From positions 20,869 through 84,868 of the forward strand of contig JAGOPV010000001.1 of the NCBI GenBank assembly GCA_017991775.1: DNA of 64,000 nucleotides, read 5' to 3'. The translations under genes and the position numbers were made by a program. Below the pieces are notes generated by a model, which worked only from the letters and a program-made list of their open reading frames with translations, did not search any database and had not been told where the DNA came from. This document shows positions 5,644-42,314 of this stretch, piece after piece (the first letter of the stretch is position 1; every line of letters begins with the position of its first letter). Source of the stretch: Candidatus Levyibacteriota bacterium. Lineage in GTDB: Bacteria > Patescibacteriota > Microgenomatia > Levybacterales > UBA12049.

Positions 5644-5646
5644 CAC

Positions 5647-6591: not shown

Positions 6592-6617
6592 ATTACTTCT
6601 GCTATAATCTTGCGGTT

Positions 6618-7676: not shown

Positions 7677-7690
7677 AAGGCAGTTAGCTG

Positions 7691-7984
7691 TTATCTCCGT
7701 CGATCAGAATCACGATCTGAATCTTTTGACATAAGTCCCTTGACCAATTTTGCAACACTTATCAGAGTGCTTGCCTTGACACCCATTGAGAGCGATGCAA
7801 GAGAAGAGAGAGGGCGAGATACGCTCTCGGTAATAGAGTGAGCATCTTCGATAATCTTGTTAGCCTTTAAAAGTGATTGCCTAGCTTCTTTAATAAAAAG
7901 ATAGACCTGTGCACCAATAATCACCAAAACAACCGTCACGATTACGATCACTGATAGAAGAATTATTTGAATAAAATCAATCAT
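7691..7984 (-). CDS. Small membrane protein (DUF948-like)
   Basis: N-terminal TM helix (IILLSVIVIVTVVLVIIGAQVYLF) plus a coiled-coil-like tail; co-directional with the ftsK/rodZ-like block. Confidence 0.4.
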   Translation of the reverse strand: MIDFIQIILLSVIVIVTVVLVIIGAQVYLFIKEARQSLLKANKIIEDAHSITESVSRPLSSLASLSMGVKASTLISVAKLVKGLMSKDSDRDSDRRR

Positions 7985-8012
7985 ACCTACCTATTTAGTG
8001 TAGCACATTTCG

Positions 8013-8651: not shown

Positions 8652-8657
8652 ATGTAG

Positions 8658-10799: not shown

Positions 10800-10854
10800 G
10801 ATACTTATCCATAATAGCACATACCTAGCCTCACGCAACTACTATACGAAGTTT

Positions 10855-12567
10855 TTAGACCTCAATCACAACGGGGAGTACAAGTGGACGCTTTCGAAGT
10901 CTCTTAAAGATATATTTACTTGCTGTCTCTTCAATTTGCTTTCTTGTATGCACCCAGTTAGTGACTCTTCCCTTTTTAGTAGCAAGGATGTTCTTTAGCT
11001 CATGGGCAAGACCTGTCTCAATCAATTTAGCATCAGCTGGCAAAAGTCCTCGAACAATAAAGTCGGGCCTATCAACAAGCTGGCCATTTGCAGCCGAAAC
11101 TTCGATCATTAAGATCAAAATACCATCTTTTGCTAATTTCTCTCTATCTCGAAGGACAAACCCCTCGATCTCCCCTCCCGAAACCTGATCAACATAGACA
11201 TTTTTCATTGGAATCTTTCGCCCCTTCTTATACCCATCTTTCCAGAAAATGATCTCCTGACCATTTTCAATGATAAGGACATTCTTCTCTGGATAATCAA
11301 GCTTGAGCGCTAGCTCTTTATAGTAAACAAGGTGCTTATAATTACCACTAATTGGGATGACGAACTTGCCCTTTAGAAGCGACATCATCATGTAATGATC
11401 TTGGATAGATCCATGACCGGAGACGTGTAGAAGTGCACCTTGCTGCGAAGTAATTGCATGTGCTCCAGTCTTTGCAATTGAGTCGATAAGGCTATTAACA
11501 GCTTCTTCATTACCAGGAATTGGATCTGATGAGAAGACGACGACATCATCTTTTGTCAGATGGATTTCACGATGCTCACCCTCTGCGATTCGGGTAAGCG
11601 CTGAGTTCTCTTGCCCCTGACTTCCAGCTGCAATATAAACAAGCTTGTTGTCTGGATAATTTGAAGCTTGAGCAAGCTCTATAAGCGTCCCATCCTGAAC
11701 TTGAAGATAGCCAATTCGCTTCGCAACATCGGTCACTTTCACAAGCGATCGTCCCACAAGACAAACTTTACGACCATACTTCTCGGCTGCTGCAATAATT
11801 TGGTTGATTCTTGCAACGTTTGACGAATATGTCGTCAGGATGAATTTACCCTTACACTCAGAAAGTGCTCTCTCAAATGATTTTCCGATTCCTTGGTCTG
11901 AAGGCGTTTGACCTTGGCGATCAGATCCCAGTGAATCACTAAGGTGCACCATGACTCCCTCTTTAGCAAAATTCGCGATTGACTCAAAGTCCATTCGCTT
12001 TTTGTCATAAGGTGTTAGATCAATCTTAAAATCGCTGCCATGATAAAAATTACCGACAGGAGTCCTAATAAAAATATTTGCACTATCTGGAACCGAGTGG
12101 GTGACATGAATAAAGCTACAACTAAAGCTCCCGAGTGTTATTGGTTTATCCCCAAAAGATACTGAGCGCACATCCGCTGGCAATTCTAATTCACGCAATT
12201 TTTCATTTGCAAGGGCTGCTGTAAATGGAGTTGCGTACACCGGCATCTTTGGAAGCTGTGGCAAAATAAATGGAATAGCACCGATATGGTCTTCATGTCC
12301 ATGAGTAAGGAGGAGTCCAACTATCTTTTTCTTTGTTGTCAGAAGATAACTGATATCTGGAATAAGAAGGTCAACGCCAAGCATTGAACTGTCTGCAAAT
12401 CCAATACCACAATCAACTATGAGAATTTCATCTTTGTATTCATAAAGATATAAATTCTTTGTAACGTCTTCCAGTCCTCCAAGCGGAAGGAAAGAGACTG
12501 TATCTGCTGGCACTGATTGTGCATTTTTTTGATGATGTACTGGCTGTGGTGTAATTTGTTTTTCCAT
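10855..12567 (-). CDS. rnj: Ribonuclease J (metallo-beta-lactamase / beta-CASP RNase)
   Basis: LLLTHGHEDHIGAIPFI motif, beta-CASP region and C-terminal domain; 570 aa. Confidence 0.85.
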   Translation of the reverse strand: MEKQITPQPVHHQKNAQSVPADTVSFLPLGGLEDVTKNLYLYEYKDEILIVDCGIGFADSSMLGVDLLIPDISYLLTTKKKIVGLLLTHGHEDHIGAIPFILPQLPKMPVYATPFTAALANEKLRELELPADVRSVSFGDKPITLGSFSCSFIHVTHSVPDSANIFIRTPVGNFYHGSDFKIDLTPYDKKRMDFESIANFAKEGVMVHLSDSLGSDRQGQTPSDQGIGKSFERALSECKGKFILTTYSSNVARINQIIAAAEKYGRKVCLVGRSLVKVTDVAKRIGYLQVQDGTLIELAQASNYPDNKLVYIAAGSQGQENSALTRIAEGEHREIHLTKDDVVVFSSDPIPGNEEAVNSLIDSIAKTGAHAITSQQGALLHVSGHGSIQDHYMMMSLLKGKFVIPISGNYKHLVYYKELALKLDYPEKNVLIIENGQEIIFWKDGYKKGRKIPMKNVYVDQVSGGEIEGFVLRDREKLAKDGILILMIEVSAANGQLVDRPDFIVRGLLPADAKLIETGLAHELKNILATKKGRVTNWVHTRKQIEETASKYIFKRLRKRPLVLPVVIEV

Positions 12568-12574
12568 AGTTATT

Positions 12575-13708
12575 TTAAAGTGTTATAAAATCTTTTACAT
12601 TGTCAGGACCGATTCTCACATATTGAGCTTTCCCTTCGATGATTTGTCGAGCGACCTTGCGACACATTCCTTCAATTGTTCGTTCTAATGAGCGTATTCC
12701 AGAATCAAACCCTAATGGCCTGATCACAGATTGCCAGACAGTGTCATCAACGACTATCTGCTGCTCTGTTAATCCTGAATTCGAACGAATTCTCTTGAAG
12801 AGATAGTTCTTTGCGATGATGACCTTTTCATCATCTGAATATGATGGCATTTGAATTATCTCAAGTCTATCTAATACCGCTGTTGAAATATTGGTCGTAT
12901 TATTTGCAGTTGCGATAAAAAACACATTTGAAAGATCAAATGGAAAATCAATGTAATGATCCAAAAACGAATAATTCTGCTCTGGATCTAGAAGCTCTAC
13001 CAGAACTCCCATGATATCTCCGCGATAACTCTCAGTGACACGATCTAACTCATCCAAAAGTATTACTGGATTCTTAGATCCTGCATGAACTAGCTTTTTA
13101 ATGACCGCGCCTGGCTCAGAATCAGGAAGCGCTTTTGACTGACCCCTTAATGAGCGAGAGTCGGCCATGCCTCCAAACGGAATACGTTCAAATTTTTTAT
13201 TAAGAGCATCAGCGACAGACTTGGCAAGGGTCGTTTTACCTGTACCTGCTAAGCCAACCAGGCAAAGAATTGGTGCGCGCTGAACGACATCCTTCCTACC
13301 TGCTTTTAAATTTAGGATTATAGTTGCAAGATAATCCAAAATACGATTCTTAATCGAATCAAGTCCATAATGGTTTTGATCCATCAGCTCTTTTGCATGA
13401 AGAAGATCCAATGTGTCCTGAGTCTGAGTCTCCCAAGGGAGAGTAACTACCCAATTCACAAATGACGATGTATTCTCATACTCGAGAATATAATTTGCGC
13501 TCATGAATCCCGAGCTTGAACGTAAAAGTGCTAGTCTTGAAACTCTTTCAAGAATATTAAGTTTTAATTGATCTGGAAGCTTTGCCTGCTCGACTCTTTC
13601 TCCAAGTCTTCGAATTTGATCTGTTGATTCATGTGTGGCTGATTGAGAGCTCGCACTTTGAGGTTGAATTATTTGATCGCTAATGACACTGGCAGTCGGT
13701 TCGGGCAT
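12575..13708 (-). CDS. Lon-like AAA+ ATPase lacking the protease domain
   Basis: Strong Lon AAA+ similarity: YGLDSIKNRILDYLA, Walker A LVGLAGTGKTT, Walker B LLDELD, sensor ATANN, LDRLEII, SGIRSLER. The protein ends (..KDFITL) where the Lon peptidase domain would begin, and the Lon N-domain is also absent. Confidence 0.75.
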   Translation of the reverse strand: MPEPTASVISDQIIQPQSASSQSATHESTDQIRRLGERVEQAKLPDQLKLNILERVSRLALLRSSSGFMSANYILEYENTSSFVNWVVTLPWETQTQDTLDLLHAKELMDQNHYGLDSIKNRILDYLATIILNLKAGRKDVVQRAPILCLVGLAGTGKTTLAKSVADALNKKFERIPFGGMADSRSLRGQSKALPDSEPGAVIKKLVHAGSKNPVILLDELDRVTESYRGDIMGVLVELLDPEQNYSFLDHYIDFPFDLSNVFFIATANNTTNISTAVLDRLEIIQMPSYSDDEKVIIAKNYLFKRIRSNSGLTEQQIVVDDTVWQSVIRPLGFDSGIRSLERTIEGMCRKVARQIIEGKAQYVRIGPDNVKDFITL

Positions 13709-13723
13709 ATACTACTATCTTAC

Positions 13724-16120
13724 CTAATAATGTGTTCTTCTGCGAGGGCTTGATCCTGCTGGTCTTTTCTCAACTCTTTCTCTCTCAAATTGACGAGAAA
13801 GTGGATGCTTAGTCTCAGCTGCGTCAGCTGCTGGAGCCTCAACTCTATTAAAATCACGTCTAAATGGTGCTGGTGCTGGCCGAGATGCTGGAGCTCCATA
13901 TGCAGGTCGTGGAGATGCGCTTCTTCTCTCAAAAGGTGGTCTTGATGAACTTGACGATGGTCTTCTTTCATATCCACCACTTCTTGGCTCTCGAGGTGGC
14001 TGACCTGATCCAGAATCAGTACTTTCACCACTCTCACCAAACTTCATAGTAAGATTAATTCTTCCTTGATCATCAATCTCCTGAACTCGGACCTTTACCA
14101 CTTCTCCAAGCGATACAACATCCTCAGGTGAATTAACAAATCCTTCGCCCATCTTAGAAACATGTACCATGCCTTCTTTACCAGGCAAGATCTCAACAAA
14201 TGCACCGAAAGGCAAGATTCTCTTAACTGGACCATCAAATACCTCTCCAACCATTACTTCACGGGTCAATCCCTTTACCCATTCAATTGCTTTGTTGACT
14301 GCTTCGCTATCAGTTCCAGAGATAGTTACCGATCCATCATCTTCAACGTCAACTGTCGCTCCAGTTGTTGCGATGATATTCTTGATAGTCTTTCCACCAG
14401 GACCAATAAGTTCGCCAATCTTCTCGACTGGAATAGTTACAACTTCGATCTTTGGAGCATACTTTGAAAGTTCAGCACGTGGTGCTGCGATCGCATTATT
14501 CATTTTTTCAAGAATAATCATTCTTGCTGACTGAGCTCTATCCAAGATCTCTCCAACTTGCTTATCTGTAAGACCTGGAACTTTAACGTCCAATTGGATA
14601 GCTGTAATGCCTGTGTCTGTTCCTGCTACCTTAAAGTCCATATCTCCAGAGAAATCTTCAATTCCGATAATGTCTGTAATAAGAACATAGTCTTTCTCGT
14701 TTGACATCATTCCGACTGAAATTCCAGCTACTGGCTTAGTGATTGGCACACCAGCGTCCATGAGCGCGAGTGTTGATCCGCAAGTTGATGCCATAGAGCT
14801 TGATCCGTTCTGGGAAAGAACTTCTGAGACAACTCGGATCGTGTACGGGAATGCAGCCTTTGTTGGGATAACGGCCTCAAGTGCTCTCTCTGCCAATGCT
14901 CCATGACCTGTCTCTCTTCGAGAAACTGATCCAAATCTTCCAGCCTGTCCGAATGAATATGGTGGTCCTGAATAATGATGAATATATCTCTTTGATTCTT
15001 CGCCTTCTGCAGATTCAAGCAATTGTTCCATGCGAGGAGAGCCCAGAGTTACAATTGAAAGCGCCTGTGTAAGACCTCTATTAAAGACTGCTGACCCGTG
15101 AGTTCTTGGCAAAAGTCCAAGTTCCATAGAAATATCTCGTATTTGATCAATCTTTCTTCCATCAGCTCTCACTTTTTTCTCAATAAGATTTGATCTAATG
15201 ATCTTGAACATGACAGCTTCTAGTGCTTTTCCAAGAATCTTTTTATCAAGAGATGTTTCAGAATCTGCAGATTTTGCAGCCTCAACGATCTTAGCTAAGA
15301 GCTCAACTGTCTCAGATCCTCCGCCCTCTTTGTTCGCACTAGCTTCGATCAATGCCTCAACCTCAGCACTGTATGACTTCTCAACAAATGCAATTGCATC
15401 TGCAACTAATGGATCTTTTGCAACTTCAATTTTTGCTTGACCGATCTCTTTCGTGACCTTTTCGATAAAGGCAACCATTTTCTGCGTCTCTTTATGAGCC
15501 TCTACGATCGAATTATGGACAACATTCTCAGGAACCTCTAATGCTCCAGCTTCAATCATTACTGTCAGATCCTTACTCTGACTTGCAACGATATCGAGCT
15601 TTGACACTTTCATTTCACTACCTACTGGATTGAAAATGTATTCTCCTGCTTCATCAAGACCCATACGGATAGCTCCAATTGGACCTTTCCATGGAATTGG
15701 TGAGATAGCAAGCGCAAGGGAAACTGCATTAAGAGCTAAGATGTCTGGCTTGTGCTCTCCATCTGCTGAAAGAAGTGTTACAACTACCTGTACTTCATTT
15801 TTATATTCCTTGGGGAAAAGTGGTCTAATAGAGCGATCGATAAGTCTTCCGATAAGAACCGCTTCATCAGTTGGACGTCCTTCTCGCTTTACCCATCTAC
15901 TACCCTTGATGCGGCCACCAGCATAGAGCTTTTCTGCATATTCAACACTAAGTGGGAAATAATCAATATCATCACGAGCATTTCCTGCGACGACAGTAAC
16001 AAGCACGACAGTTTCACCTAAGCGTGCTAACACGCTTGATGTTGCTTGTGGAGCTAGGGTACCGATATCAAATTTGATTTCTTTTCCGGCGAATTCAATC
16101 ACCTGTGAGGTCTTTTGCAT
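13724..16120 (-). CDS. pnp: Polynucleotide phosphorylase (PNPase) with an extra ~110-aa R/S/P-rich C-terminal tail
   Basis: Two RNase PH domains, a KH domain and an S1 domain (VGEVFDGPVKRILPFGAFVEI), followed by a low-complexity tail (..RRPSSSSSRPPFERRSASPRPAYGAPASRPAPAPF..). Confidence 0.9.
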   Translation of the reverse strand: MQKTSQVIEFAGKEIKFDIGTLAPQATSSVLARLGETVVLVTVVAGNARDDIDYFPLSVEYAEKLYAGGRIKGSRWVKREGRPTDEAVLIGRLIDRSIRPLFPKEYKNEVQVVVTLLSADGEHKPDILALNAVSLALAISPIPWKGPIGAIRMGLDEAGEYIFNPVGSEMKVSKLDIVASQSKDLTVMIEAGALEVPENVVHNSIVEAHKETQKMVAFIEKVTKEIGQAKIEVAKDPLVADAIAFVEKSYSAEVEALIEASANKEGGGSETVELLAKIVEAAKSADSETSLDKKILGKALEAVMFKIIRSNLIEKKVRADGRKIDQIRDISMELGLLPRTHGSAVFNRGLTQALSIVTLGSPRMEQLLESAEGEESKRYIHHYSGPPYSFGQAGRFGSVSRRETGHGALAERALEAVIPTKAAFPYTIRVVSEVLSQNGSSSMASTCGSTLALMDAGVPITKPVAGISVGMMSNEKDYVLITDIIGIEDFSGDMDFKVAGTDTGITAIQLDVKVPGLTDKQVGEILDRAQSARMIILEKMNNAIAAPRAELSKYAPKIEVVTIPVEKIGELIGPGGKTIKNIIATTGATVDVEDDGSVTISGTDSEAVNKAIEWVKGLTREVMVGEVFDGPVKRILPFGAFVEILPGKEGMVHVSKMGEGFVNSPEDVVSLGEVVKVRVQEIDDQGRINLTMKFGESGESTDSGSGQPPREPRSGGYERRPSSSSSRPPFERRSASPRPAYGAPASRPAPAPFRRDFNRVEAPAADAAETKHPLSRQFERERVEKRPAGSSPRRRTHY

Positions 16121-16124
16121 TTAT

Positions 16125-16394
16125 TTAGTCTTTCAATCCTATCTTCTTCTTAATATCTGAGGAACGGGTCTTATCGACCTTAACCAAAAAATTGAGAAGT
16201 CTTCTTCTTTTAGCGATCATGGACAAGAGTCCACGTCTACTATGAGTATCATGCGCATGATCTTTAAGGTGATCAGCGAGCCTTGTGATGCGGTGAGTAA
16301 GGAGTGCGATCTGCACTTCTGGACTACCAGTATCACCATCCACTGTCTGGAATGATTTAATTATATCTTGTTTTTGTGTCGTTGAAAGCGGCAT
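16125..16394 (-). CDS. rpsO: 30S ribosomal protein S15
   Basis: 89 aa; matches the S15 family (..GSPEVQIALLTHRITRLADHLK..) in the classical rpsO-pnp arrangement. Confidence 0.9.
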   Translation of the reverse strand: MPLSTTQKQDIIKSFQTVDGDTGSPEVQIALLTHRITRLADHLKDHAHDTHSRRGLLSMIAKRRRLLNFLVKVDKTRSSDIKKKIGLKD

Positions 16395-16440
16395 AACGAT
16401 GTATATTATATCAATTCACGATCCAAACCGCAACAGACCT

Positions 16441-17571
16441 TTATGAAACAGAGGTAGAACCTTTGTACACCTTAGGTGTTAGCCAGTCAGATGGCGGCTT
16501 TGGCTGGTTATTATCAGATGCAAGATCAGGCACCAAGACAGGAGCGCTCTCTGAAGCAGGCTCCATAGATGGCTGACTATTCTGTGGTTGAGACTGTTGC
16601 TGTTGTTGACCACTATTTCTATTTACATGCTGTCTTAACGCTTCACGAACATTCTCTCTTCTATCTTCAGTGCGAGGCTGCTGATTTTGATTCTGATTTT
16701 GGCTTGAACGATGTGAATTATCCTGCCTTGGCTGATTTGATCCTGTTCTCACTGGTGAGGATTGGTTTGGTCTTTGTGATGGTCTAGGCAATTCATCTGC
16801 TCGATCAAGCCTAGGAGTAGCTTGCTGTGGTCGAACTGAAGTAGCCTTTCTTACTGCACCCCTCTTAATAAGGATTGATGCGATCTCAAAAGCAAGATAA
16901 CTAGTCTTTGGATCTTGGAAATTATTTGTTGCGTCAGTTAGGCCAATCATGAGGTTTTGTGACACATCAACATCTAGCTCCATTTCAAGATTAAGAAGAA
17001 GGTCAGCCACCTGCTCTGAGAGCGATGAAAACTTTGCAGAAACGAGAACAACATTCCCATACCCTTCATTAGTACTGACATTATCAATATTTAATAGTGT
17101 TACGGCATTGAGAATTTCCTCAGAAAACATTGAAGAAAGCTGAGAAATTGAGCCAACTCCAACTGAGATGATCATGTCTGGCTTATCTGCTCCTCGCTTA
17201 AATTGAACATCGCTCTCCTGGAATGTAAGACCCTTCTCGCCCGCCTTAACAACAATATTAAGAGCATCGCCTTCAATGGTATATGAAACCTTATCAATTT
17301 CTCCCTCTCTATACGGAAATGAAACAACGAGATCGCCATTTCCACCCTCGTCTGCACCTTTTACACGGTCAATACCAACGAGTGATGAGTGCTCAACAAG
17401 AGCTGCGGTTGGGGAAATAACGTATGTCTTTTTTCCCTGAGCATTCATGCTTAGAGAGATTGCAAGCGCACCGGCCATTTGATCAACTGAGGGATTTGCG
17501 GAGACCACTATAGCTACACGATTACTTCGTGCGATAAGATCGCGAATTTGTGATAATGCATTTGTATCCAT
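16441..17571 (-). CDS. DHH-family (NrnA-like) phosphoesterase homologue with degenerate catalytic motifs and a Q/N/P-rich tail
   Basis: Alignable to NrnA, but motif I is PSVDQMAG rather than PDxDxxGS, motif III is NIDNV rather than DHH, and there is no GGGH. The C-terminal ~110 aa are low-complexity (QNQNQNQQPR..). Confidence 0.55.
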   Translation of the reverse strand: MDTNALSQIRDLIARSNRVAIVVSANPSVDQMAGALAISLSMNAQGKKTYVISPTAALVEHSSLVGIDRVKGADEGGNGDLVVSFPYREGEIDKVSYTIEGDALNIVVKAGEKGLTFQESDVQFKRGADKPDMIISVGVGSISQLSSMFSEEILNAVTLLNIDNVSTNEGYGNVVLVSAKFSSLSEQVADLLLNLEMELDVDVSQNLMIGLTDATNNFQDPKTSYLAFEIASILIKRGAVRKATSVRPQQATPRLDRADELPRPSQRPNQSSPVRTGSNQPRQDNSHRSSQNQNQNQQPRTEDRRENVREALRQHVNRNSGQQQQQSQPQNSQPSMEPASESAPVLVPDLASDNNQPKPPSDWLTPKVYKGSTSVS

Positions 17572-31201: not shown

Positions 31202-31507
31202 TTATTTTCGCTTTTTCAGCTCGTCCTTGACCAGCTGGTCGGCGTCTGCAGTGTTCCCTTCTGCCAGAAGACCAGCTGCGCCACTGCGCTTTAGAAATGC
31301 GCAGAGTGCTGTGTCGTTCGTGAAACTCTGAGTTGTTCTTCGATAGACACCGCAGGCCTTAAATCGCCTGATGATCTCCTCACATGAGAGTTCTTTGCCC
31401 TCCAGATCGTCATCCCCCTGATCAGGCTCGAGACCTTCAAGACTCCTCAGTGCCACTCGCATTGAAGCAGGTGGCAATTGAAATCTGCTCCTTCTCTGAG
31501 CTACCAT
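31202..31507 (-). CDS. Hypothetical protein in a GC-rich (~50%) 0.4-kb island
   Basis: The ORF's composition is clearly higher in GC than its flanks; no family recognised. Start taken at MVAQRR (31507). Confidence 0.3.
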   Translation of the reverse strand: MVAQRRSRFQLPPASMRVALRSLEGLEPDQGDDDLEGKELSCEEIIRRFKACGVYRRTTQSFTNDTALCAFLKRSGAAGLLAEGNTADADQLVKDELKKRK

Positions 31508-31643
31508 TGCTGGCTCCTTTCGAAGCTTGAAAAAAAACAAGTCAACGTATGACTGACCAGATTATACTGAAACATATAATAAATTTCAAACTATAAGCCT
31601 CCCGCCCCTTTATACTAGATACAAAATACTCTATACTTGGTGA

Positions 31644-32450
31644 ATGATCGACGTTCATTGCCACCTCAACTTTCACTCATTTGAAGAAGACTATGATGCT
31701 GTTATCAAGTCCGCACTTGGAAAGGGCTTAACGCGAATTATCAATGTGGGTACAAAAATCGACTCGAGTCAGTGGGCGGTTGATCTTTCTAAAAAATATC
31801 CAGAGCTCTATGCGATTGTTGGTGTACATCCACATCACGCAGATAAAGTCGGTATGAGCGATGACTGGCTATCAGAGCTTGAAACAATTGCTAAAAATGA
31901 CAAAGTTGTAGGCATTGGCGAGATTGGTCTTGATTACTTCAGCTATAAATCAAATGGCGTGACTGATCCTCAATTGCAAAAAGAGATGTTTGATCTTCAG
32001 ATCGAACTTGCCCATAAACTAGGTCTTCCAATTCAAATCCATAATAGGCTCGCAGGCGAGGATGTTATCGCTATGCTTAAAGAGCGAAAGCATCTTCTTC
32101 AAGCTGCACCTGGCATGTTCCACTGCTTTGCTGGGACAAAAGAGGTCCTTAAAGATGCACTTGATCTGGGATTCTTCATCGGCTTTGATGGCAATAGCAC
32201 CTATCCAGGTCTCGCACCAAAAGAGACAGTCGAGCTTTCCGAGTTAATCAGCCTCACCCCACTTGAGCGAATTGTAACTGAAACTGATAGCCCCTACCTG
32301 ACACCAATCCCACATCGCGGAGAAAGAAATCTCCCAGAGTACGTAATGCTTGTCGGAGAGCACATTGCTAAAGTCAAAGATGTGCCATTTCAGCACGTAG
32401 TAGAACAAACAACGCAAAACGTCTATACTATCTTTAGTAAATTAGGCTAA
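31644..32450 (+). CDS. tatD: TatD-family metal-dependent hydrolase (DNase)
   Basis: MIDVHCHLNF.. and GIGEIGLDY, conserved His/Glu/Asp ligands; 268 aa. Confidence 0.85.
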   Translation: MIDVHCHLNFHSFEEDYDAVIKSALGKGLTRIINVGTKIDSSQWAVDLSKKYPELYAIVGVHPHHADKVGMSDDWLSELETIAKNDKVVGIGEIGLDYFSYKSNGVTDPQLQKEMFDLQIELAHKLGLPIQIHNRLAGEDVIAMLKERKHLLQAAPGMFHCFAGTKEVLKDALDLGFFIGFDGNSTYPGLAPKETVELSELISLTPLERIVTETDSPYLTPIPHRGERNLPEYVMLVGEHIAKVKDVPFQHVVEQTTQNVYTIFSKLG

Positions 32451-32452
32451 TT

Positions 32453-33946
32453 ATGACTTCATATTTTGACAGACTCTTTCGCCGTTACCCAATAAAGTCT
32501 ACTCGATCACTTGAGATACTTCCTGGATTTATTTCATGGACTGTCATTCTTTTCCCTATTTGGGGCTCACTCCTCATTCCAACACAGCTTGCATACTTCA
32601 TTCTCTTTTTTGATGTTTATTGGTTCTACAAGTCCTATTCACTTGTGGTCAACGCCTACAGATCTTCGCGTAAAATTAAACAGGCAGAAAGAGAGAACTG
32701 GCTCAAAAAGGCTGAGCACCTACCGAATTTTGATAAAGTGACCCATCTTCTGATCATCCCTAATTACAAAGAGAGTGTTGAAAAAATGCGAACGACTATC
32801 GAGCACCTAGCAGCACAAACCTTGTCCCCAAAAAAACTCCACGTCGTCCTTGCGATGGAAGACCGAGAGACTGAGGCTCGTGGCAAAGCGGGGGAAATTA
32901 TCAAGGAGTTTAAGGGTGTCTTTGGAAGTATTTTTGCCACATATCATGTCGACGCGCCTGGTGAGATCAAGGGCAAATCCTCAAATGAAGCATTTGCAGG
33001 AATTGAGGCTCATGACACACTCTATGTAAAAGGCAAATATGATATCGACTATGCGACAGTCTCATCTGTTGACGTTGACTCAATTTTCGATAAGCAATTC
33101 TTTGCTTATCTCACATATAAATTCTTGAGTGATGATATGCGTTATAACAAGTTCTGGCAATCAGCTACAGTCTTTTATAACAATGTCTGGCAAGTCCCAG
33201 CACCGATCCGTATTCTCTCATTCTTCGGTAGTCTTTGGAGAACTTCAATGCTCGTTCAGGGAGACAGACTGATCACACAATCAACCTATACTCTCTCACT
33301 CAAACTTTTACGTGATATTGGATTCTGGGATGTGGATGTTATTCCTGAAGACTACCGAGTCTTTTTCAAAGCATTCTTTGCAAAGAAAGGGCAGATCTGG
33401 ACAGAGCCAATTTTCCTCAAGACATCAATGGATGCTGCATTTTCCAAAGGATATATCAATAGTTTGAAAAACAAATACCACCAGGAGCGACGCTGGTCAT
33501 GGGGAGTATCTGACGATCCGCTCTTTATTAAGTGGTGGTTCACTATCCCAGGCGTACCATTTATCCGTAAAACTTCGATGATCTATCATGTAGTTCTGGA
33601 CCATCTCCTTTGGCCAGTCAATTGGTTTATCATCACTGTCGCAGCCAACATCGTACCGTTCATCAATCCAACATTCTATCGAACTTCCCTTGGCTATTCC
33701 CTTCCCCATATTGCAGGCTTCATCCTTACCTCAACTATTCTTGCTATCGTTGCACTTATGTTCATTGACTATAAGAATAGACCCGAGAATACTCCTTTGC
33801 CTTTGCGAAGAAAGATCTTCTTCCCTTTTGAATTTATCTTAATGCCAATAGTTGGCTTTTTCCTTTCTGCACTGCCTGCCCTTATCTCCCACACCCAACT
33901 TATGTTTGGGAAAAGAATGGAGTATAAAGTCACAGATAAAGCATGA
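32453..33946 (+). CDS. Membrane-embedded glycosyltransferase family 2 (GT-A) protein
   Basis: N-terminal TM helices, a GT2 catalytic region (HLLIIPNYKES .. VDVDS ..) and further C-terminal TM helices; 497 aa. Confidence 0.65.
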   Translation: MTSYFDRLFRRYPIKSTRSLEILPGFISWTVILFPIWGSLLIPTQLAYFILFFDVYWFYKSYSLVVNAYRSSRKIKQAERENWLKKAEHLPNFDKVTHLLIIPNYKESVEKMRTTIEHLAAQTLSPKKLHVVLAMEDRETEARGKAGEIIKEFKGVFGSIFATYHVDAPGEIKGKSSNEAFAGIEAHDTLYVKGKYDIDYATVSSVDVDSIFDKQFFAYLTYKFLSDDMRYNKFWQSATVFYNNVWQVPAPIRILSFFGSLWRTSMLVQGDRLITQSTYTLSLKLLRDIGFWDVDVIPEDYRVFFKAFFAKKGQIWTEPIFLKTSMDAAFSKGYINSLKNKYHQERRWSWGVSDDPLFIKWWFTIPGVPFIRKTSMIYHVVLDHLLWPVNWFIITVAANIVPFINPTFYRTSLGYSLPHIAGFILTSTILAIVALMFIDYKNRPENTPLPLRRKIFFPFEFILMPIVGFFLSALPALISHTQLMFGKRMEYKVTDKA

Positions 33947-35436
33947 TCAAAAGAACTCACGCACTCCTCTATACTTTAGAGAGGTCAAAAATGTTTTGGA
34001 CCATCTTTCTTTCTTCTTTGGTCTTTTTTATCCTCAGACTTCCCTCACTCTTTGAACCAAATTGGTATGGAGATGAAGGAATATATGAAGTAATTGGGAA
34101 AGCAATATCTGAGGGAAAAATTCTTTATCTCCATATTTGGGACAACAAGCCGCCCCTCCTCTATGCAACATATGCAATTTTTCATGGTGACCAATTTTGG
34201 GCGAGATTGCTCTCGCTTCTTTTTGGACTTGGCGCGATTATCACACTCTTCTTTCTTGCAAAGAAATTATTCAAGGAGCTCGTACCCACAGTAATTGCAA
34301 CAGGGATATTTACCATTCTCTTAGGCTTACCTTTTCTTGAAGGCAACATTGCTAATGCTGAAAATTTCATGCTTTTCCCAGTTATCCTCGCAGGATTTAT
34401 CTGCTTTACTCATGTTGAAAAAACAGCAAAGAAGAAGCCACTTTTCCTTGCTGGGATCCTCCTTGGCATTGCTTTTCTTTATAAGATAGTAGCAATCTTT
34501 GACCTAGCAGCACTGGTAACGTTTCTCTGCCTTTATTATCTTCCTGAAAAAAATATTTTAGATTTTAGAAAATATCTTTCCCAAATGGCAACCAAGGTTG
34601 GATTGCTTGTCGGGGGATTTCTCATACCATTTGCCATCTCTTGTCTTTATTTTCTCAGCAATGGTGGGCTGCAAGCATATTTTCAAGCTATCTTTTTTAG
34701 CACTGTTGGATATGTTGGCTACAATAATGTACTTATCATCCCACAAGGCCTTCTCATCGCAAAGCTCATCCTTCTCGTCTTTGCAGTTCTCATACTTTTG
34801 AAACTAAAGAAAAAACTCCATCCATCACTTCTTTTTATTTTTACCTGGGCGGCGTTCTCACTTTTCAATAGCTTCTTTTCACAAAGACCATATACACACT
34901 ACCTGCTCGTACTTATACCAACATTCTCACTTATTGCTGGCTCTGCTTTCTACCGTAATGGACTACGAAAAATCTCACTTATTATTGCGTGTATTATCGC
35001 GGTGATTGGACTCTATTTCTTCAATCATTGGAGCATAACGAAAACTGTTGGCTTCTACACAAATTTTTCTCAATTCGTTGCAGGTCAAAAAACCTTACGC
35101 GAGTATCAAAACTTCTTTGATAGAAGAGCACCTAAAGACTATGAAATAAGCAGATATATTAACGCTCATAAAAAATCTGGTGAAAATATTTATATATGGG
35201 GAAATTCTGCACAGCTATATGTCATGACCGACACGCTTCCACCTGGCAGATTTACTGTTGCATATCACGTAGGCGGTGACACAAATCATCTTGAGGAGAC
35301 AAGGAAAGCGATCGCACAAGCCAACCCTCAATTTATCGTTGTCCAACAGGGAATGACAATGTATCCATTCTCGCTGTATAATTACCAGCATGCTATCACG
35401 ATTTCTGAAAACATCATCTATGAACGAGTTCGTTAA
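33943..35436 (+). CDS. GT-C fold glycosyltransferase (ArnT / PMT / GT39-83-like polyprenyl-phosphate-sugar-dependent transferase)
   Basis: Multi-TM protein with an N-terminal DE motif in the first loop (WYGDEGIYEV), typical of GT-C enzymes; 497 aa. Overlaps the GT2 stop by 4 nt. Confidence 0.65.
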   Translation: MIKRTHALLYTLERSKMFWTIFLSSLVFFILRLPSLFEPNWYGDEGIYEVIGKAISEGKILYLHIWDNKPPLLYATYAIFHGDQFWARLLSLLFGLGAIITLFFLAKKLFKELVPTVIATGIFTILLGLPFLEGNIANAENFMLFPVILAGFICFTHVEKTAKKKPLFLAGILLGIAFLYKIVAIFDLAALVTFLCLYYLPEKNILDFRKYLSQMATKVGLLVGGFLIPFAISCLYFLSNGGLQAYFQAIFFSTVGYVGYNNVLIIPQGLLIAKLILLVFAVLILLKLKKKLHPSLLFIFTWAAFSLFNSFFSQRPYTHYLLVLIPTFSLIAGSAFYRNGLRKISLIIACIIAVIGLYFFNHWSITKTVGFYTNFSQFVAGQKTLREYQNFFDRRAPKDYEISRYINAHKKSGENIYIWGNSAQLYVMTDTLPPGRFTVAYHVGGDTNHLEETRKAIAQANPQFIVVQQGMTMYPFSLYNYQHAITISENIIYERVR

Positions 35437-35773
35437 GCACATCTCCTCAGATAGAATTCTTTCATATGGAGTGATCCTTTCACTGGTGATCCTCTTTGTC
35501 ACTCTCATGTATATCGCTTTTTTCTACCCATCACTTCCACCTGTCTTGCCAATCTTCAACCAATTACCCTGGGGCATCGCAAGACTTGGCGGAAAAATAC
35601 TTATTTTTCTACCAACACTTCTTGTCCTAATGATAATTATCATTAATGTTATTTTTGCCAGATTTATATATGAACGAATGCCACTAACAACGAGGATGCT
35701 CTACATCACAACGACATTGCTTTCTTTTTTTACTCTTTATTTCTCAATCAGAATTATTCAACTGATTATCTAA
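35420..35773 (+). CDS. Small membrane protein in the glycosylation cluster
   Basis: Three TM helices; the start is uncertain (35390 or 35420). Confidence 0.35.
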   Translation: MNEFVKHISSDRILSYGVILSLVILFVTLMYIAFFYPSLPPVLPIFNQLPWGIARLGGKILIFLPTLLVLMIIIINVIFARFIYERMPLTTRMLYITTTLLSFFTLYFSIRIIQLII

Positions 35774-35774
35774 T

Positions 35775-36848
35775 ATGGATATTTATACAATCTTACTGAT
35801 CATCACAACTAGCCTAGGGATTACAGCGGCACTTACCTATATCTTTATCCCACTTATTAAAAAATGGGGACTTGTCGATGACCCAGCGCTCCACAAGCAT
35901 CCTGCAATGATCCACACAAAGATCATTCCAAGAGCGGGTGGGCTTCCGATCTTTATTGGGATATTTATCTCATGTCTTATCTTCCTTCCGATTACTCAAA
36001 TCACAATTGGTATTCTTTTGGCATCCTTTCTTGCACTCGTGATGGGACTTATCGATGATAGATATAACGCTCGATCAAAGGATGTATCACCTTACCTTCG
36101 ATTTGGTTTTAATATTCTTTGCGCTAGTATTGTTGTGTTTAGTGGTATCAGCATTCCATTTATTACACACCCATTGGGGGGCATTCTCCATCTAGATATG
36201 CTTATTCCCTTTCTCCCAATTTCATTCGGACAAGTCATCGCTCTCATTTGGATTGTATGGGTCATGAACATGCTTAATTGGAGTAAAGGCATTGATGGAC
36301 AAATGCCAGGGATTGTTGCAATATCTGCATTTGTAATTGGAATACTTAGCCTCAGAACTCCTCTTATGGATGGAGCTGGGCTCATCGATGCAAGACTTTC
36401 TTTTGTGCTTACCGGTGCTGCACTTGGATTCTTGGTATTTAACTTTCACCCCGCCAAAATCTTCCCTGGCTACGGCGCCACCTGCATGTATCTTCTCTTA
36501 GCAGTTGTCTCTATCCTCTCGAGTGCCAAACTCGCAACAGCAATCCTTGTCATGGGTGTTCCAACTATGGATGCACTCTTTACTATTTTTAGACGTGTCC
36601 TTAGTAAAAGGTCTCCATTTCGTCATGATGACAAACATCTCCATCACATCCTCCTAAAATTTGGATTTGGACAAAGAAAAATTGCATTGTTTTATTGGAT
36701 AATCTCTGCTATATTTGGCACAATTGCACTAAGCCTTAGGAGCGAGAGCAAGCCGTTTGCTCTCATCTCGCTTGGAGTTATTGCTGGTGGCGGATTACTT
36801 TTCTTGCATTTTATAGTACGATATAGACATGAAAAAGACAGCGCGTAA
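35775..36848 (+). CDS. Polyprenyl-phosphate N-acetylhexosamine-1-phosphate transferase (GT4, WecA/MraY family)
   Basis: About 10 TM helices, GLIDDRYN (DDxxD), NMLNWSKGIDGQMPG (NxxNxxDGxDG) and HLHHILLKFGF near the C-terminus. Confidence 0.7.
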   Translation: MDIYTILLIITTSLGITAALTYIFIPLIKKWGLVDDPALHKHPAMIHTKIIPRAGGLPIFIGIFISCLIFLPITQITIGILLASFLALVMGLIDDRYNARSKDVSPYLRFGFNILCASIVVFSGISIPFITHPLGGILHLDMLIPFLPISFGQVIALIWIVWVMNMLNWSKGIDGQMPGIVAISAFVIGILSLRTPLMDGAGLIDARLSFVLTGAALGFLVFNFHPAKIFPGYGATCMYLLLAVVSILSSAKLATAILVMGVPTMDALFTIFRRVLSKRSPFRHDDKHLHHILLKFGFGQRKIALFYWIISAIFGTIALSLRSESKPFALISLGVIAGGGLLFLHFIVRYRHEKDSA

Positions 36849-37776
36849 TTATCTACGCCTCTTAAGACCACGACAGTGGGTCAAGAACTTTGCCGTCTTT
36901 GCTGCTCTTACCTTCAGCGGAGAACTCTTCTCGCCCCTACTTTTCCAAAATGTCCTCATAGGTTTTATTGTATTTTGCTGCATCTCCTCATCAATCTATG
37001 TGGTCAATGACATGTTTGATGTAAGCAAAGACAGACTCCACCCTTTTAAGAAAAATAGACCTCTCGCAAATAAAGACATATCACTTCGAACAGGAGCGAT
37101 TATCGCACTCATTCTTTGTCTTGGTGGTTTGATTGCAAGCTATATTGTCTCACCAGGCTTTTTAATCATCACACTTGTATACCTACTCCTCCAGATCTCA
37201 TATTCTATGGTACTCAAGCATATAGCAGTAATTGATATTCTCGCGCTTGCCGGTGGATATATTTTACGTGTCTATGCAGGAGAACTTCTTAGCGGATATC
37301 ATATTTCAGTCTGGCTTCTTCTGACCACCATCTCTCTCTCACTCTTTCTGGCTATTGGTAAAAGACGACGCGAACTGACGCTCATATCCTCTGAGACAGG
37401 GAGAAATATAGCTGAGATTAGAAGATCTCTCTCGCACTACTCTGAGAGGCTTCTTGATGTCTATGCATCGATCTTTGCTACATCCACCTTTATCTCATAT
37501 GCCCTTTTCACATTCCTTGAGAACGCGCGCCAACTTACTGTTACCAACGATATATTCTTCCCAGAATTCCTCCCCTCATATATGCAAAGAAAATGGCTCA
37601 TGCTGACTATAGCTCCTGTAGTTTATGGACTTATGAGGTATCTTCAGGATATCTATGAAAAGCATGAGGGAGAGAGTCCAGAGAGGGTACTATTCCAAGA
37701 CAAACCACTTTTTGCGACAGTCCTCATTTGGGCCATCATGACAATAGTTATTATCTACGTCATTCAGGCAGGATGA
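36829..37776 (+). CDS. UbiA-family prenyl-phosphate phosphoribosyltransferase (decaprenyl-phosphate phosphoribosyltransferase / DPPR-synthase-like)
   Basis: LLRPRQWVKNFAVFAA, YVVNDMFDVSKDRLHPFKKNRPLANKDIS, LKHIAVIDI and GKRRREL match, from memory, the Rv3806c-type DPPR synthase signatures (RPRQWVKN, NDxxDxxxDxxHPxKxxRP). Confidence 0.7.
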   Translation: MKKTARNYLRLLRPRQWVKNFAVFAALTFSGELFSPLLFQNVLIGFIVFCCISSSIYVVNDMFDVSKDRLHPFKKNRPLANKDISLRTGAIIALILCLGGLIASYIVSPGFLIITLVYLLLQISYSMVLKHIAVIDILALAGGYILRVYAGELLSGYHISVWLLLTTISLSLFLAIGKRRRELTLISSETGRNIAEIRRSLSHYSERLLDVYASIFATSTFISYALFTFLENARQLTVTNDIFFPEFLPSYMQRKWLMLTIAPVVYGLMRYLQDIYEKHEGESPERVLFQDKPLFATVLIWAIMTIVIIYVIQAG

Positions 37777-37826: not shown

Positions 37827-38675
37827 CTACTGTTTAGTAGCATACTGACTGCTTACCCATCCAGTAACTCCACTTGGAAGCGTTATCTGATACCAGTCAT
37901 CAATTTCTGAAAGAATATCAAAGGTTTGTCCTGGAGACACCCTCCCCACCTCACCTGCATTAACATTATTCGAAGCTCTTACACGCAAAAATCCAGTTGG
38001 GGTCTGGGAGATCACAATTTTTGAGACAATTGGTGTAGGCGATGCGGAGGGTGAAGCAACCTGTGTCGGAGATGGAGTTAATGAAAGCCCATCTTCATCA
38101 ACTGATAAATAAACCGATGCGAGAAGTTTGTATCCACCCGGGGTCCTAATTCTCACCTTTTTATCTAGGTACCCGCTTTTGCGAATTAACAACTCATGAT
38201 CTGAGTCTGTTAACTTATCGATAACAACGGGGGTAAACCCTGATGAAAGATTGTCAACGAGCACCTCTGCTCTTGTAGGAGTAGATACAACGAGTAAAGA
38301 TGCCTTCTCGCCTGACTTTAGCTGAGATAGCGTAATGATACTTCCCTCGGATGTTGCGCCAGGTCCAAATTTGCGATCCACAACAGTAAGTACAGATTTC
38401 GATATTGTGATCTTTTCCTGAAACTCATTTAACGATCCTGTCGTTGGCACAAGGCGGATTGTATACTCACCAGTCTTTAACATGTCTGAGACATTACATT
38501 TACATAATGGAGTCTGCCCAATAAGTTTGTCATTAATGTACACCTTGCTTGAAGGAGAAGCAGTAACTTGCAGAGCGCCTTTCTCGTTATTTCGCAATAG
38601 AAATGTATTTACAAGAAAAATAATTATAACAATGCAAATAAGTGAGGGGACAACAATAACAATGACTTTTTTCAT
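37827..38675 (-). CDS. PEGA-domain surface protein with C-terminal bacterial SH3 domain
   Basis: Signal anchor, two PEGA-like repeats (..LQVTASPSSKVYINDKLIGQTP.. / ..LLVVSTPTRAEVLVDNLSSGFTP..), a P/S/T linker, and an SH3b-like C-terminus (GFLRVRASNNVNAGEVGRVSPGQTFDILSEIDDWYQITL..GWV). Confidence 0.6.
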   Translation of the reverse strand: MKKVIVIVVPSLICIVIIIFLVNTFLLRNNEKGALQVTASPSSKVYINDKLIGQTPLCKCNVSDMLKTGEYTIRLVPTTGSLNEFQEKITISKSVLTVVDRKFGPGATSEGSIITLSQLKSGEKASLLVVSTPTRAEVLVDNLSSGFTPVVIDKLTDSDHELLIRKSGYLDKKVRIRTPGGYKLLASVYLSVDEDGLSLTPSPTQVASPSASPTPIVSKIVISQTPTGFLRVRASNNVNAGEVGRVSPGQTFDILSEIDDWYQITLPSGVTGWVSSQYATKQ

Positions 38676-40233: not shown

Positions 40234-41196
40234 CTACACTATTTTTTTTGCAAATCCTGACATAAAACTTATAGCCATCTTGCCCAAATCCTCAACATTA
40301 TATCCGCCCTCCTGGATGATGAGGGATGGCACATTAAGCCCTGCAATTTGATTGGCCATTTTTTTATAAAAAGGTATCGTAAGCTTAAATCCGCCTATTG
40401 GATCCTTCTCATAGGTATCAAATCCTAGGGAGATCACCAGAAAATCAGGCTGAAATTTCTTAACATTGTTAATTGCTTTCTCAAGCGTACCCATGTATGT
40501 CTCATCATTCACGCCAAGTGATAAAGGATAATTTTTAGTATACCCTAAGCCTAATCCTCTACCTCTCTCATTTGAAAATCCACTAATATAGGGAAATTTC
40601 ACTTTAGGATCTGCATGAATTGAGACGTATAGAATATCATCTCTATCATAGAACATTGCCTGAGTGCCATTCCCATGGTGAAAATCTACATCCAATATTG
40701 CGACTTTTCCCGTTTTGGAAAGATAGTTCGCGGCAATTGCAGCATTATTGAAATAACAGTATCCACCCATTGCATTGCACTCGGCATGATGCCCCGGTGG
40801 ACGACATAGTGCGTAGACTTGCGTATCTACGCCTCGAGCGATCATCTGAGCCCCTGTCAGCGCAACATCAACTGATGTGCGCGCTGCTTGATATGTGCCT
40901 TTTACAACTGGCGCATATGTATCTCTCATAAAATATGATGGATACAATATCTGATCTTTTTTAAGCAAGCTTGATCTGTCAGAGAGAAATTCAATGTATG
41001 CATCATGATGAAGACTGCGAATATTATTTATCGAAAATCTCTTCGGCATGATAAATTCATACCCACCGTCCTGTGTGATTGCGTCAACAATAGACTGCAG
41101 TCGCTCAGGCTTTTCAGCATATGACTCTCTTACCCCATCATATATCTCATATGAAGGGTTATGACTTAAATGTTTCTTTGTATAAATTACTTTCAT
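40234..41196 (-). CDS. Histone deacetylase-superfamily amidohydrolase (AcuC / acetylpolyamine amidohydrolase-like)
   Basis: Conserved RPPGHHA and DVDFHHGNGTQ motifs; 320 aa. Confidence 0.75.
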   Translation of the reverse strand: MKVIYTKKHLSHNPSYEIYDGVRESYAEKPERLQSIVDAITQDGGYEFIMPKRFSINNIRSLHHDAYIEFLSDRSSLLKKDQILYPSYFMRDTYAPVVKGTYQAARTSVDVALTGAQMIARGVDTQVYALCRPPGHHAECNAMGGYCYFNNAAIAANYLSKTGKVAILDVDFHHGNGTQAMFYDRDDILYVSIHADPKVKFPYISGFSNERGRGLGLGYTKNYPLSLGVNDETYMGTLEKAINNVKKFQPDFLVISLGFDTYEKDPIGGFKLTIPFYKKMANQIAGLNVPSLIIQEGGYNVEDLGKMAISFMSGFAKKIV

Positions 41197-41243
41197 GTTC
41201 GTACCTTTCTGCTCGCAAGCCGGCCGGACTTACAAGCAATAGA

Positions 41244-42314
41244 TTATTTTGCCCCCTCCTGAGAGCGTACTGCATTTACCATAAGAGCTGTCAGAGCTCT
41301 CGGATAAAGTGCATCAGATTCTGCCTTGCGAACTACATTTAAAGTAAAATCGCGCAGCAGCCCATCTGACATTTCTCCGTCATTTACCACGACGTTCTGT
41401 TCTAGAACCTGCTGAAATGTTCTCCCTGAGTATTCTCTTTCTGGAATACTAAACCCTGCTTTATATGCTGGGATATCAGATCGAGATCCAAAATTGCACT
41501 CTGCAACAATCGTTGGAAAATCGGAAAGATCTGTAAACACCTGTCCATTAAGAAATGCAATCGTCGCTGCATTAAGTCCCCGTCTTCTCATTGATGGATG
41601 AACTGCCCACTCAGTATTTTCAACTAAGCTGATTGGGCTCCCGTCACTTTCCCTGAACTGAAGACGCTCAGCTGTTGCCGCACTGACGAGCTTCCCTGTT
41701 GCCCTGTCAGAAATGCCGCTAAACCAAGTCTGACGATCATTGGGATCAACTCCGTCCTGAGCATGTAGTGTGTTCTGCAACGCAACAATTCCCTCCCTTG
41801 TCCAACCAAACGTATTCCCCCACAGCTCGTGGAGATCGCTAATCTGGGCATCTCGAATATTTGTTTGCAGATCAAAATTTGGGAAAACTGGCGCATAAAG
41901 CTCGACCACTCCCTCAGCTCTAGCTCTTGAACTTGTCAGATCTGTCTCACGTATTATATTCTCAACTGAGTGAAGTGGCACTCTATCCTCTCGATTCTTC
42001 GCGAGTCCGATCAGCCAAAGATCATCTGTCCTTGTTCCTTCAAGCTGAAATGCTATCTCAATATCGTCCAAAATAGTATCATCTGTTTGAGCAGCCTCTC
42101 TTAAGACTTCTCCGTTAATCAAGCTGCGAAATACCGCTCTACTCCTATCCTCATGATCTGAAACCTCTTTCAGCATCTCAAAGCCTTCTACGAGTTCGTG
42201 CAATTCTGATACTGGACCATATTGATATGTCCAGTATGCCCTCTCATCGCTTCTCTGCACGTCTACTCCTAGCGCTCCGACGCTTGATATCATACCTGTT
42301 TCATTTTCTATCAT
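41244..42314 (-). CDS. Hypothetical protein with possible C-terminal GNAT-like acetyltransferase motif, in a GC-rich (~50%) segment
   Basis: HPSMRRRGLNAATIAFL resembles GNAT motif A (R-x-x-G-x-A). The N-terminal ~200 aa were not recognised. GC is higher than in the neighbours. Confidence 0.35.
   Translation of the reverse strand: MIENETGMISSVGALGVDVQRSDERAYWTYQYGPVSELHELVEGFEMLKEVSDHEDRSRAVFRSLINGEVLREAAQTDDTILDDIEIAFQLEGTRTDDLWLIGLAKNREDRVPLHSVENIIRETDLTSSRARAEGVVELYAPVFPNFDLQTNIRDAQISDLHELWGNTFGWTREGIVALQNTLHAQDGVDPNDRQTWFSGISDRATGKLVSAATAERLQFRESDGSPISLVENTEWAVHPSMRRRGLNAATIAFLNGQVFTDLSDFPTIVAECNFGSRSDIPAYKAGFSIPEREYSGRTFQQVLEQNVVVNDGEMSDGLLRDFTLNVVRKAESDALYPRALTALMVNAVRSQEGAK

Follow-up and report, generated by a model that had tools for sequence, protein, structure and literature searches.

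A conserved Microgenomates operon that may direct polyprenol-dependent assembly of a pentofuranose-bearing surface glycan

We analyzed a 64,000-nucleotide stretch of DNA (hereafter the window) from Candidatus Levyibacteriota bacterium, a member of the Microgenomates within the Candidate Phyla Radiation (CPR, or Patescibacteria); it spans positions 20,869 to 84,868 of contig JAGOPV010000001.1 in assembly GCA_017991775.1. Positions 32453-37776 of the window hold an operon of five plus-strand genes, here called A to E, whose ends overlap or abut in the list of open reading frames (ORFs). We put at about an even chance the reading that this operon, conserved in Microgenomates, serves to make a surface glycan or glycoconjugate that depends on polyprenol and carries a pentofuranose, most simply ribofuranose. 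By analogy, it is best read as a variant of the 'three-component' pentofuranose systems joined to a WecA-primed, synthase-type glycan pathway. A prediction made earlier from this DNA (the original prediction) had described five tightly packed, co-directional genes here, and the ORF coordinates and junctions agree with it. The boundary it drew was too narrow, however, as the conserved core also takes in the small membrane protein C and a convergent gene, F. The features are as follows.

A, 32453-33946, plus strand, 497 residues: membrane-integrated family 2 glycosyltransferase (GT2) of the cellulose/hyaluronan-synthase type that putatively acts as a processive polymerase and exporter.
B, 33943-35436, plus strand, 497 residues: GT-C fold glycosyltransferase (PMT_2/ArnT-like), predicted to use a polyprenyl-phosphate-sugar donor at the outer face of the membrane.
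C, 35420-35773 (the ORF may open at 35390), plus strand, 117 or 127 residues: small membrane protein with three transmembrane segments.
D, 35775-36848, plus strand, 357 residues: predicted polyprenyl-phosphate N-acetylhexosamine (HexNAc)-1-phosphate transferase of the WecA/TagO/MraY superfamily.
E, 36829-37776, plus strand, 315 residues: predicted polyprenyl-phosphate 5-phosphoribosyltransferase of the UbiA superfamily, that is, a synthase of decaprenyl- or polyprenyl-phosphoryl-5-phosphoribose (DPPR or PPPR).
F, 37827-38675, minus strand: membrane-anchored protein in which a Ser/Thr/Pro-rich linker joins two PEGA domains to an SH3_3 domain; convergent neighbour about 50 nucleotides past E.
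TatD-family hydrolase, 31644-32450, plus strand: upstream neighbour (TatD_DNase, 252 bits, Pfam).

Against NCBIfam, E scored 217.2 bits with NF008978, 'decaprenyl-phosphate phosphoribosyltransferase' (cut-off 207), and 219.4 bits with NF008977, just under that model's cut-off of 234; the UbiA family was also matched. Models for heme O synthase, DGGGPS (archaeal lipid), UbiA (ubiquinone) and chlorophyll synthase gave at most 62 bits, so the best matches of E lie with the DPPR models and not in the quinone or archaeal-lipid subfamilies. Its sequence matches in the PDB were solely two entries for Rv3806c of M. tuberculosis (best 8j8j, E-value 1.7e-35). The structure paper on Rv3806c lists the residues that contact Mg and the ribose, 5-phosphate and pyrophosphate of phosphoribosyl pyrophosphate (PRPP) (PMC10994848). 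Thirteen of the 14 Rv3806c positions that we checked are identical in E (R22, K28, Y70, N73, D74, D77, D81, K87, R90, Q135, Y138, K143 and Y157), the sole change being K208, which is arginine in E (R199). Counting the 12 residues that bind PRPP, Mg or the 5-phosphate, 11 are identical, with D74 and D81 as further motif aspartates. The motifs RPRQWVKN and NDxxDxxxDxxHP are both found in E, and the mapped active-site residues are invariant across 8 CPR homologues. E consists of 315 residues without an extra domain, and so has no fused HAD phosphatase; it is 39% identical to the UbiA protein of a Pseudomonas locus that also encodes DprE1, DprE2, GtrA and a GT-C enzyme. By score, nearest structure and active-site residues, E thus appears to be a PRPP-dependent enzyme of the DPPR-synthase type, as originally predicted. 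This basic identification is not new, because E-like UbiA proteins in public records are already auto-annotated as 'decaprenyl-phosphate phosphoribosyltransferase'.

The A/B junction is an ATGA overlap, C and D are separated by 1 nucleotide, and D and E overlap by 20 nucleotides. Judging from their coordinates, the junctions from A to E are typical of translational coupling. The start of C is probably the ATG at 35420, since homologues are about 117 residues long.

To place this gene set among its relatives, we scanned a UbiA alignment against one genome per GTDB species, which gave 80 loci (numbered L001 onward), each taken with 10 kb on either side, 47 of them from CPR. Gene content was assigned by tblastn and blastp with the window proteins. 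The same gene order turns up in about 45 loci belonging to different Patescibacteria lineages, with UbiA identity as low as about 40%. Every Levybacteria locus has methionyl-tRNA synthetase (MetRS), TatD, A, GT-C, C, D and E in this order, plus convergent F, and variants of the order occur in Gottesmanbacteria, Daviesbacteria, Woesebacteria and other Patescibacteria. In 45 of the 47 CPR loci, the gene directly upstream of E, on the same strand, is D; F is convergent and within 900 nucleotides of E in 44 of 47, and A together with a PMT_2 GT-C gene is directly upstream in 38/46. A, B and E have their closest relatives in metagenome-assembled genomes named Candidatus Levybacteria/Levyibacteriota or 'Patescibacteria group', including contig CAZHKZ010000004.1, which is 99% identical. 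Many further loci (L006, L007, L009, L012 and others) are clearly Levybacteria or Patescibacteria by protein similarity, and their records, titled 'uncultured Gammaproteobacteria bacterium' or 'Pseudomonadales', are mislabelled.

The exceptions to the common order show which members are fixed. The GT-C gene has moved upstream of TatD in L028, and one Gottesmanbacteria locus has a diverged GT-C at the position of B. Three loci (L043, L045, L046) read A-C-D-E-F with no local GT-C, and two (L041, L047) read alanyl-tRNA synthetase (AlaRS)-C-D-E-F, with neither A nor GT-C. Because all of these variants retain C-D-E-F, we regard these four genes as the invariant core, usually preceded by A and a GT-C gene, with B the least fixed member. 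The core is kept while its flanks change, from MetRS/TatD to AlaRS on one side and from lysyl-tRNA synthetase (LysRS) to Ham1 and others on the other. Two loci carry insertions between A and B: in Woesebacteria L053 (2611-7076), a Bac_transf phosphoglycosyl transferase, an EamA transporter, a 386-residue gene and a second PMT_2 GT-C; and in Patescibacteria L065 (5034-6927), a GalE-like epimerase of the short-chain dehydrogenase/reductase (SDR) family, which could feed UDP-sugars or, by analogy with ORF13 of Citrobacter, epimerise a lipid-linked pentose. Outside CPR, UbiA homologues of Chloroflexi, Rokubacteria, Dormibacterota and Pseudomonas (35-41% identity) do not have A-D or F nearby. Median identities within Levybacteria are 65% (A), 60% (D) and 63% (E), versus 44% (B), 39% (C) and 47% (F); by this measure the predicted outward-facing parts (B, C, F) evolve faster than the cytoplasmic catalysts (A, D, E).

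The remaining genes were assigned by family, motif and predicted fold. A itself has no Pfam or NCBIfam match, and its relatives match PF13632/PF13641 (Glyco_trans_2_3) and are named GT2. In an alignment of 42 homologues, the motifs D207xD209, E299-D300 and Q344ERRW348 are invariant; DxD, ED and QxxRW together are the hallmark of membrane GT2 synthases of the processive kind. An AlphaFold2 model of A, of moderate confidence (predicted local distance difference test, pLDDT, 71), gave as its top Foldseek matches in the PDB PcManGT, BcsA and the Chlorella virus hyaluronan synthase, with E-values from 8e-8 to 1e-6 and TM-scores of at most 0.56. Its family forms a small, discrete set of 574 clusters (50% identity) at an E-value of 1e-30 or below among 1.84 billion representatives, and at least one relative comes from Chloroflexota. 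Motifs and model together suggest that A is a cellulose/hyaluronan-synthase-like membrane GT2, putatively processive. The original prediction of a membrane GT2 stands as to family, but its generic wording missed the synthase type.

B matched Pfam PMT_2 with 29.4 bits (cut-off 26.1), and its AlphaFold model, which is confident (pLDDT 90, predicted TM-score 0.90), has the GT-C fold that had been predicted. The model matched GT-C enzymes across the board in Foldseek, including STT3/AglB and ArnT at a TM-score of 0.53. An invariant acidic motif, YGDEG, lies directly after the first transmembrane segment, in loop 1. By its modelled fold, the comparison that had been proposed as a check, B is a generic PMT/ArnT/ALG-like GT-C without special resemblance to the Emb/Aft arabinosyltransferases. 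Profile searches with A and B against PDB sequences returned noise only (E-value about 0.3).

D matched Glycos_transf_4 (83 bits, Pfam), which places it in the PNPT superfamily. Its best NCBIfam model is that of WecA (TIGR02380), at 92.5 bits far under the equivalog cut-off of 326, and its PDB sequence matches are MraY only (1e-11). We conclude from these scores that D is a WecA/TagO/MraY-superfamily enzyme, nearest WecA yet not an equivalog. The 'GT4 (WecA/MraY-like)' of the original prediction is right about the superfamily but not as a label, since the Pfam family Glycos_transf_4 was meant and not family GT4 of CAZy.

C has three transmembrane segments, is typically 117 residues long and in almost every CPR locus is placed between the GT-C gene (or A) and D. 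It has a conserved loop motif, LPPxxPxFNQLPWGxxRL, and its matches to Pfam were limited to sub-threshold hits to DUF1648 in 4 of 23 members (best E-value 0.0015). We considered C as a GtrA-type flippase and rejected this, as hhalign shows no similarity to GtrA. F carries two PEGA domains and SH3_3 (Pfam) behind an N-terminal membrane anchor visible in its sequence, and most homologues share its Ser/Thr/Pro-rich linker, which lies near residues 190-220. F may be a wall-binding partner or, via this linker, a glycosylation acceptor.

Read as one pathway, the operon would work as follows. At the cytoplasmic face, E would move 5-phosphoribose from PRPP onto polyprenyl phosphate, giving polyprenyl-phosphate-ribose-5-phosphate. 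Some phosphatase would then strip the 5-phosphate and some flippase would turn the lipid-linked ribose outward, with C a candidate flipping partner. A GT-C, B in most genomes, would then attach the pentose to an acceptor on the outer side of the membrane. That acceptor would most likely be a glycan primed by D as polyprenyl-diphosphate-HexNAc and elongated and exported by A, and F would serve as a wall-binding partner or, through its linker, as a protein acceptor.

With regard to the source of ribose-phosphate and PRPP, the window also encodes (4369-5643, plus strand) an AMP/thymidine-phosphorylase-like protein of the Glycos_transf_3 family, typical of nucleoside salvage in CPR.

The closest described relatives of this scheme are the three-component systems, in which a UbiA-type PPPR synthase using PRPP, a flippase and a GT-C add alpha-linked ribofuranose, xylofuranose or arabinofuranose outside the membrane (Kelly et al. 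2024; PMC11127046). In the prototype, from Citrobacter youngae O1/O2, these are ORF15 (a PPPR synthase with a fused HAD phosphatase, PPPRS-PRP), ORF14 (a MATE flippase) and ORF12 (a GT-C of family GT136). The sugar depends on the epimerase: without one it is ribofuranose, with a GalE-like SDR it is xylofuranose, and with DprE1/DprE2 it is arabinofuranose (PMC11127046). As in these systems, a UbiA-type, PRPP-using phosphoribosyltransferase is encoded beside a GT-C in the CPR loci (E and B share one operon, and 38/46 loci have a local GT-C); a lipid-linked pentose donor would be made for use outside the membrane, and the lack of an epimerase would imply ribofuranose. Unlike them, the CPR locus has neither a HAD domain fused to E nor a PAP2 gene nor a flippase gene of the MATE, GtrA or SMR type; its GT-C is PMT_2-like and shows no profile similarity to the one beside the Pseudomonas PPPR synthase; and it adds a coupled WecA-like enzyme, a synthase-type GT2, a novel protein with three transmembrane segments and a PEGA-SH3 protein. 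The host also differs from that of the prototype, being a monoderm-type CPR bacterium, and the locus is not an O-antigen locus.

The original prediction had framed the pathway after Corynebacteriales. This is not the best frame, as PRPP-dependent systems pairing a PPPR synthase with a GT-C were already known to be widespread (PMC11127046). The locus does resemble the mycobacterial pathway for decaprenyl-phosphoryl arabinose (DPA) and arabinogalactan (Rv3806c, Rv3807c, DprE1/DprE2, WecA, GlfT2, Aft/Emb) in combining a WecA-type primer enzyme, a DPPR synthase with the PRPP/Mg site conserved, a polymerising GT2 and a GT-C, but it lacks the pair of DprE1 (FAD) and DprE2 (SDR). A second parallel is the WecA-primed WbbF route, in which a single synthase elongates and exports an undecaprenyl-phosphate-linked O antigen on a lipid-linked primer (PMC2841628); as far as motifs and fold can tell, the CPR locus likewise pairs an enzyme making a polyprenyl-diphosphate-HexNAc primer with a single polymerising and exporting membrane GT2. 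The third is O-arabinosylation of type IV pilin in Pseudomonas aeruginosa by the GT-C TfpW with homologues of Rv3806c, DprE1 and DprE2 (cited in PMC11127046). It shares with the CPR locus a PPPR synthase and a GT-C, and the linker of F is a plausible analogous target; unlike the pilin system, the CPR locus has neither epimerases nor a pilin gene.

Which pentose is attached would turn on the epimerase. In the window, where absences were judged from Pfam scans of every ORF of at least 110 residues, there is no SDR epimerase and, as the original prediction had also noted, no DprE1 or DprE2; tblastn with DprE1 and DprE2 of the Pseudomonas locus gave the same result. With these queries we found none within 10 kb of E in any of the 47 CPR loci either. 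Homologues of both adjoin the UbiA gene in four non-CPR loci (L062, L070, L077 and L082, from two Rokubacteria, a Dormibacterota and a Pseudomonas), a contrast that fits ribose over arabinose; with no epimerase nearby, ribose is the simplest assignment.

The Pseudomonas locus (L077, Pseudomonas sp. L-22-4S-12, 5232-16639) encodes a GT-C, a DprE2-like SDR, a DprE1-like FAD enzyme, GtrA and UbiA. It is likely an O-antigen arabinofuranosylation system. This gene set adjoins genes for GDP-mannose-derived sugars and a Wzm/Wzt O-antigen ABC transporter.

Several observations weigh against a single pentofuranose pathway. The first concerns its missing parts: Pfam revealed no 5-phosphatase (PAP2 or HAD) and no flippase of the MATE, GtrA or SMR type at the locus or in the window, and tblastn with the Pseudomonas GtrA gave no match. 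Near none of the CPR loci did we find DprE1/DprE2, a phosphatase or a known flippase. Other parts of the genome could supply epimerases or further partners. The second concerns B, which resembles Aft/Emb no better than it does mannosyltransferases and has nothing in itself to indicate a pentose donor; compared with the GT-C beside the Pseudomonas PPPR synthase, it shows no profile similarity (hhalign probability 0.4%). A local GT-C is absent from 8/46 loci and displaced in L028, and the pairing of E with B is therefore not obligatory in gene order; because of these 8 loci, the donor link from E to B is one that we infer. In the moderately confident model of A, the QxxRW region has a pLDDT below 50 and its helix is poorly modelled. 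Tiny CPR genomes also pack unrelated genes tightly, and the synteny in Levybacteria (DnaK through MetRS-TatD) is largely conserved genome order. Finally, the case for CPR organisms draws on gene content, families and folds, retained active-site residues and synteny, from which we infer the single pathway, the sugar, the acceptor and the parts played by C and F.

These points leave room for a different reading, which we consider unlikely, namely that two systems lie side by side: A and B would carry out ordinary PMT/ArnT-like glycosylation with a hexose from a polyprenyl-phosphate-hexose, made by a GtrB-like enzyme perhaps encoded elsewhere, and C-D-E-F would be independent, with a GT-C partner elsewhere. 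The loci that keep C-D-E-F without a GT-C, with A (L043, L045, L046) or without it (L041, L047), are as this reading would have them. B is named GT39/PMT_2 and resembles Pmt4/ALG3 no less than other enzymes, and glycosyltransferases abound in CPR genomes, with 29, for instance, in a single Microgenomates genome (PMC7143001). However, in 38/46 loci from several class-level lineages A, GT-C, C, D and E form an unbroken row in which ends overlap, and A has a synthase signature rather than the GtrB/DPMS architecture that a lipid-hexose donor requires. Moreover, the genes inserted in L053 and L065 are all further glycan genes (second GT-C, Bac_transf, epimerase), which suggests one glycan locus.

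Quite improbable, in our judgment, is a lineage-wide secondary cell-wall glycopolymer or glycoprotein system built on the C/D/E/F module, with C as flippase or adaptor, in which the 5-phosphoribosyl lipid is used directly to make a ribose-phosphate, teichoic-acid-like polymer. Such direct use might be considered because neither a phosphatase nor an epimerase is present, and on this reading the tight coupling of D and E might mean that the two enzymes work on one shared lipid intermediate. Slightly more doubtful still is an arabinofuranose (DPA-type) pathway like those of Corynebacteriales and of Pseudomonas pilin glycosylation, with the genes for DprE1/DprE2-like epimerases in another part of the genome. 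In its favour, E is orthologous in type to Rv3806c, and arabinofuranose systems with DprE1/DprE2 beside the UbiA gene occur in several phyla (PMC11127046; loci described here), but described systems cluster the epimerases with the synthase (PMC11127046), as the four non-CPR loci do, and the window and the 47 CPR loci hold neither. Least probable of all is that independent housekeeping membrane enzymes became adjacent through genome compaction and inherited order, for although the flanks are unrelated housekeeping genes (tRNA synthetases, TatD, MurB, GreA) and long-range order is conserved within Levybacteria, all five genes appear to encode polyprenyl-phosphate or membrane glycan enzymes, the core outlasts rearrangements that replace both flanks, and D and E look translationally coupled in 45/47 loci.

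If the pentofuranose pathway is real, such glycosylation systems reach into a new phylum and take on a different gene architecture there. Its enzyme families were known before; the new elements are the synthase-type GT2, the coupled WecA-like enzyme, the protein with three transmembrane segments and the lack of a recognisable flippase or phosphatase. Our literature searches pairing CPR or Patescibacteria with decaprenyl, phosphoribosyltransferase, ribofuranose or arabinofuranose chemistry returned nothing relevant, in line with the original prediction that such an envelope polymer is not described in this lineage, and a 2024 perspective on CPR/Patescibacteria does not mention envelope glycans. 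Neither the conserved CPR-wide module, nor its unusual composition, nor the implied pentofuranose surface glycans in Patescibacteria did we find described elsewhere. A large part of bacterial diversity falls to CPR/Patescibacteria, which live attached to host cells and whose surface chemistry is almost unknown. The operon predicts pentofuranose-bearing surface glycans in these bacteria and opens a testable way into the construction of their envelope, perhaps also into host contact.

The operon is flanked by housekeeping genes (Pfam), with DnaK-GrpE-HrcA, MetRS and TatD upstream and LysRS, MurB and GreA downstream. The TatD gene ends 2 nucleotides before A and is probably a co-transcribed neighbour outside the pathway. 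We rejected TatD as the missing phosphoribose phosphatase, a role for which we found no support: the gene travels with MetRS and is absent from the AlaRS-C-D-E-F loci L041 and L047. Adjacency of MetRS and TatD is general bacterial synteny.

We found no riboswitch, such as a PRPP-sensing one, upstream of the operon; Rfam at the gathering threshold returned one tRNA in the whole window. Scans for promoters and terminators did not rise usefully above shuffled sequence (24 promoters versus 18 +/- 4.4; 8 terminators versus 5.1). They included a promoter-like site upstream of TatD (31553-31637) and an 11/12 match inside B (35353-35382), neither of which we rely on.

Three other places in the window drew our attention. 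Between MetRS and TatD, a 112-residue ORF on the minus strand (31202-31540) has no family match, and a 101-residue gene is called there in the close relative L001. Between LysRS and MurB, also on the minus strand (40234-42314), lie a histone-deacetylase-like deacetylase (Hist_deacetyl, 257 bits) and a 356-residue ORF without a family match; LysRS adjoins MurB in L001, which is 99% identical, so these two genes are an insertion or deletion between near-identical genomes. At 1157-4226 on the plus strand, the gene for a 784-residue protein that includes a Baseplate_J-like stretch runs into the beginning of a sortase gene, a combination that is odd for a structure at the surface or anchored to the cell wall.

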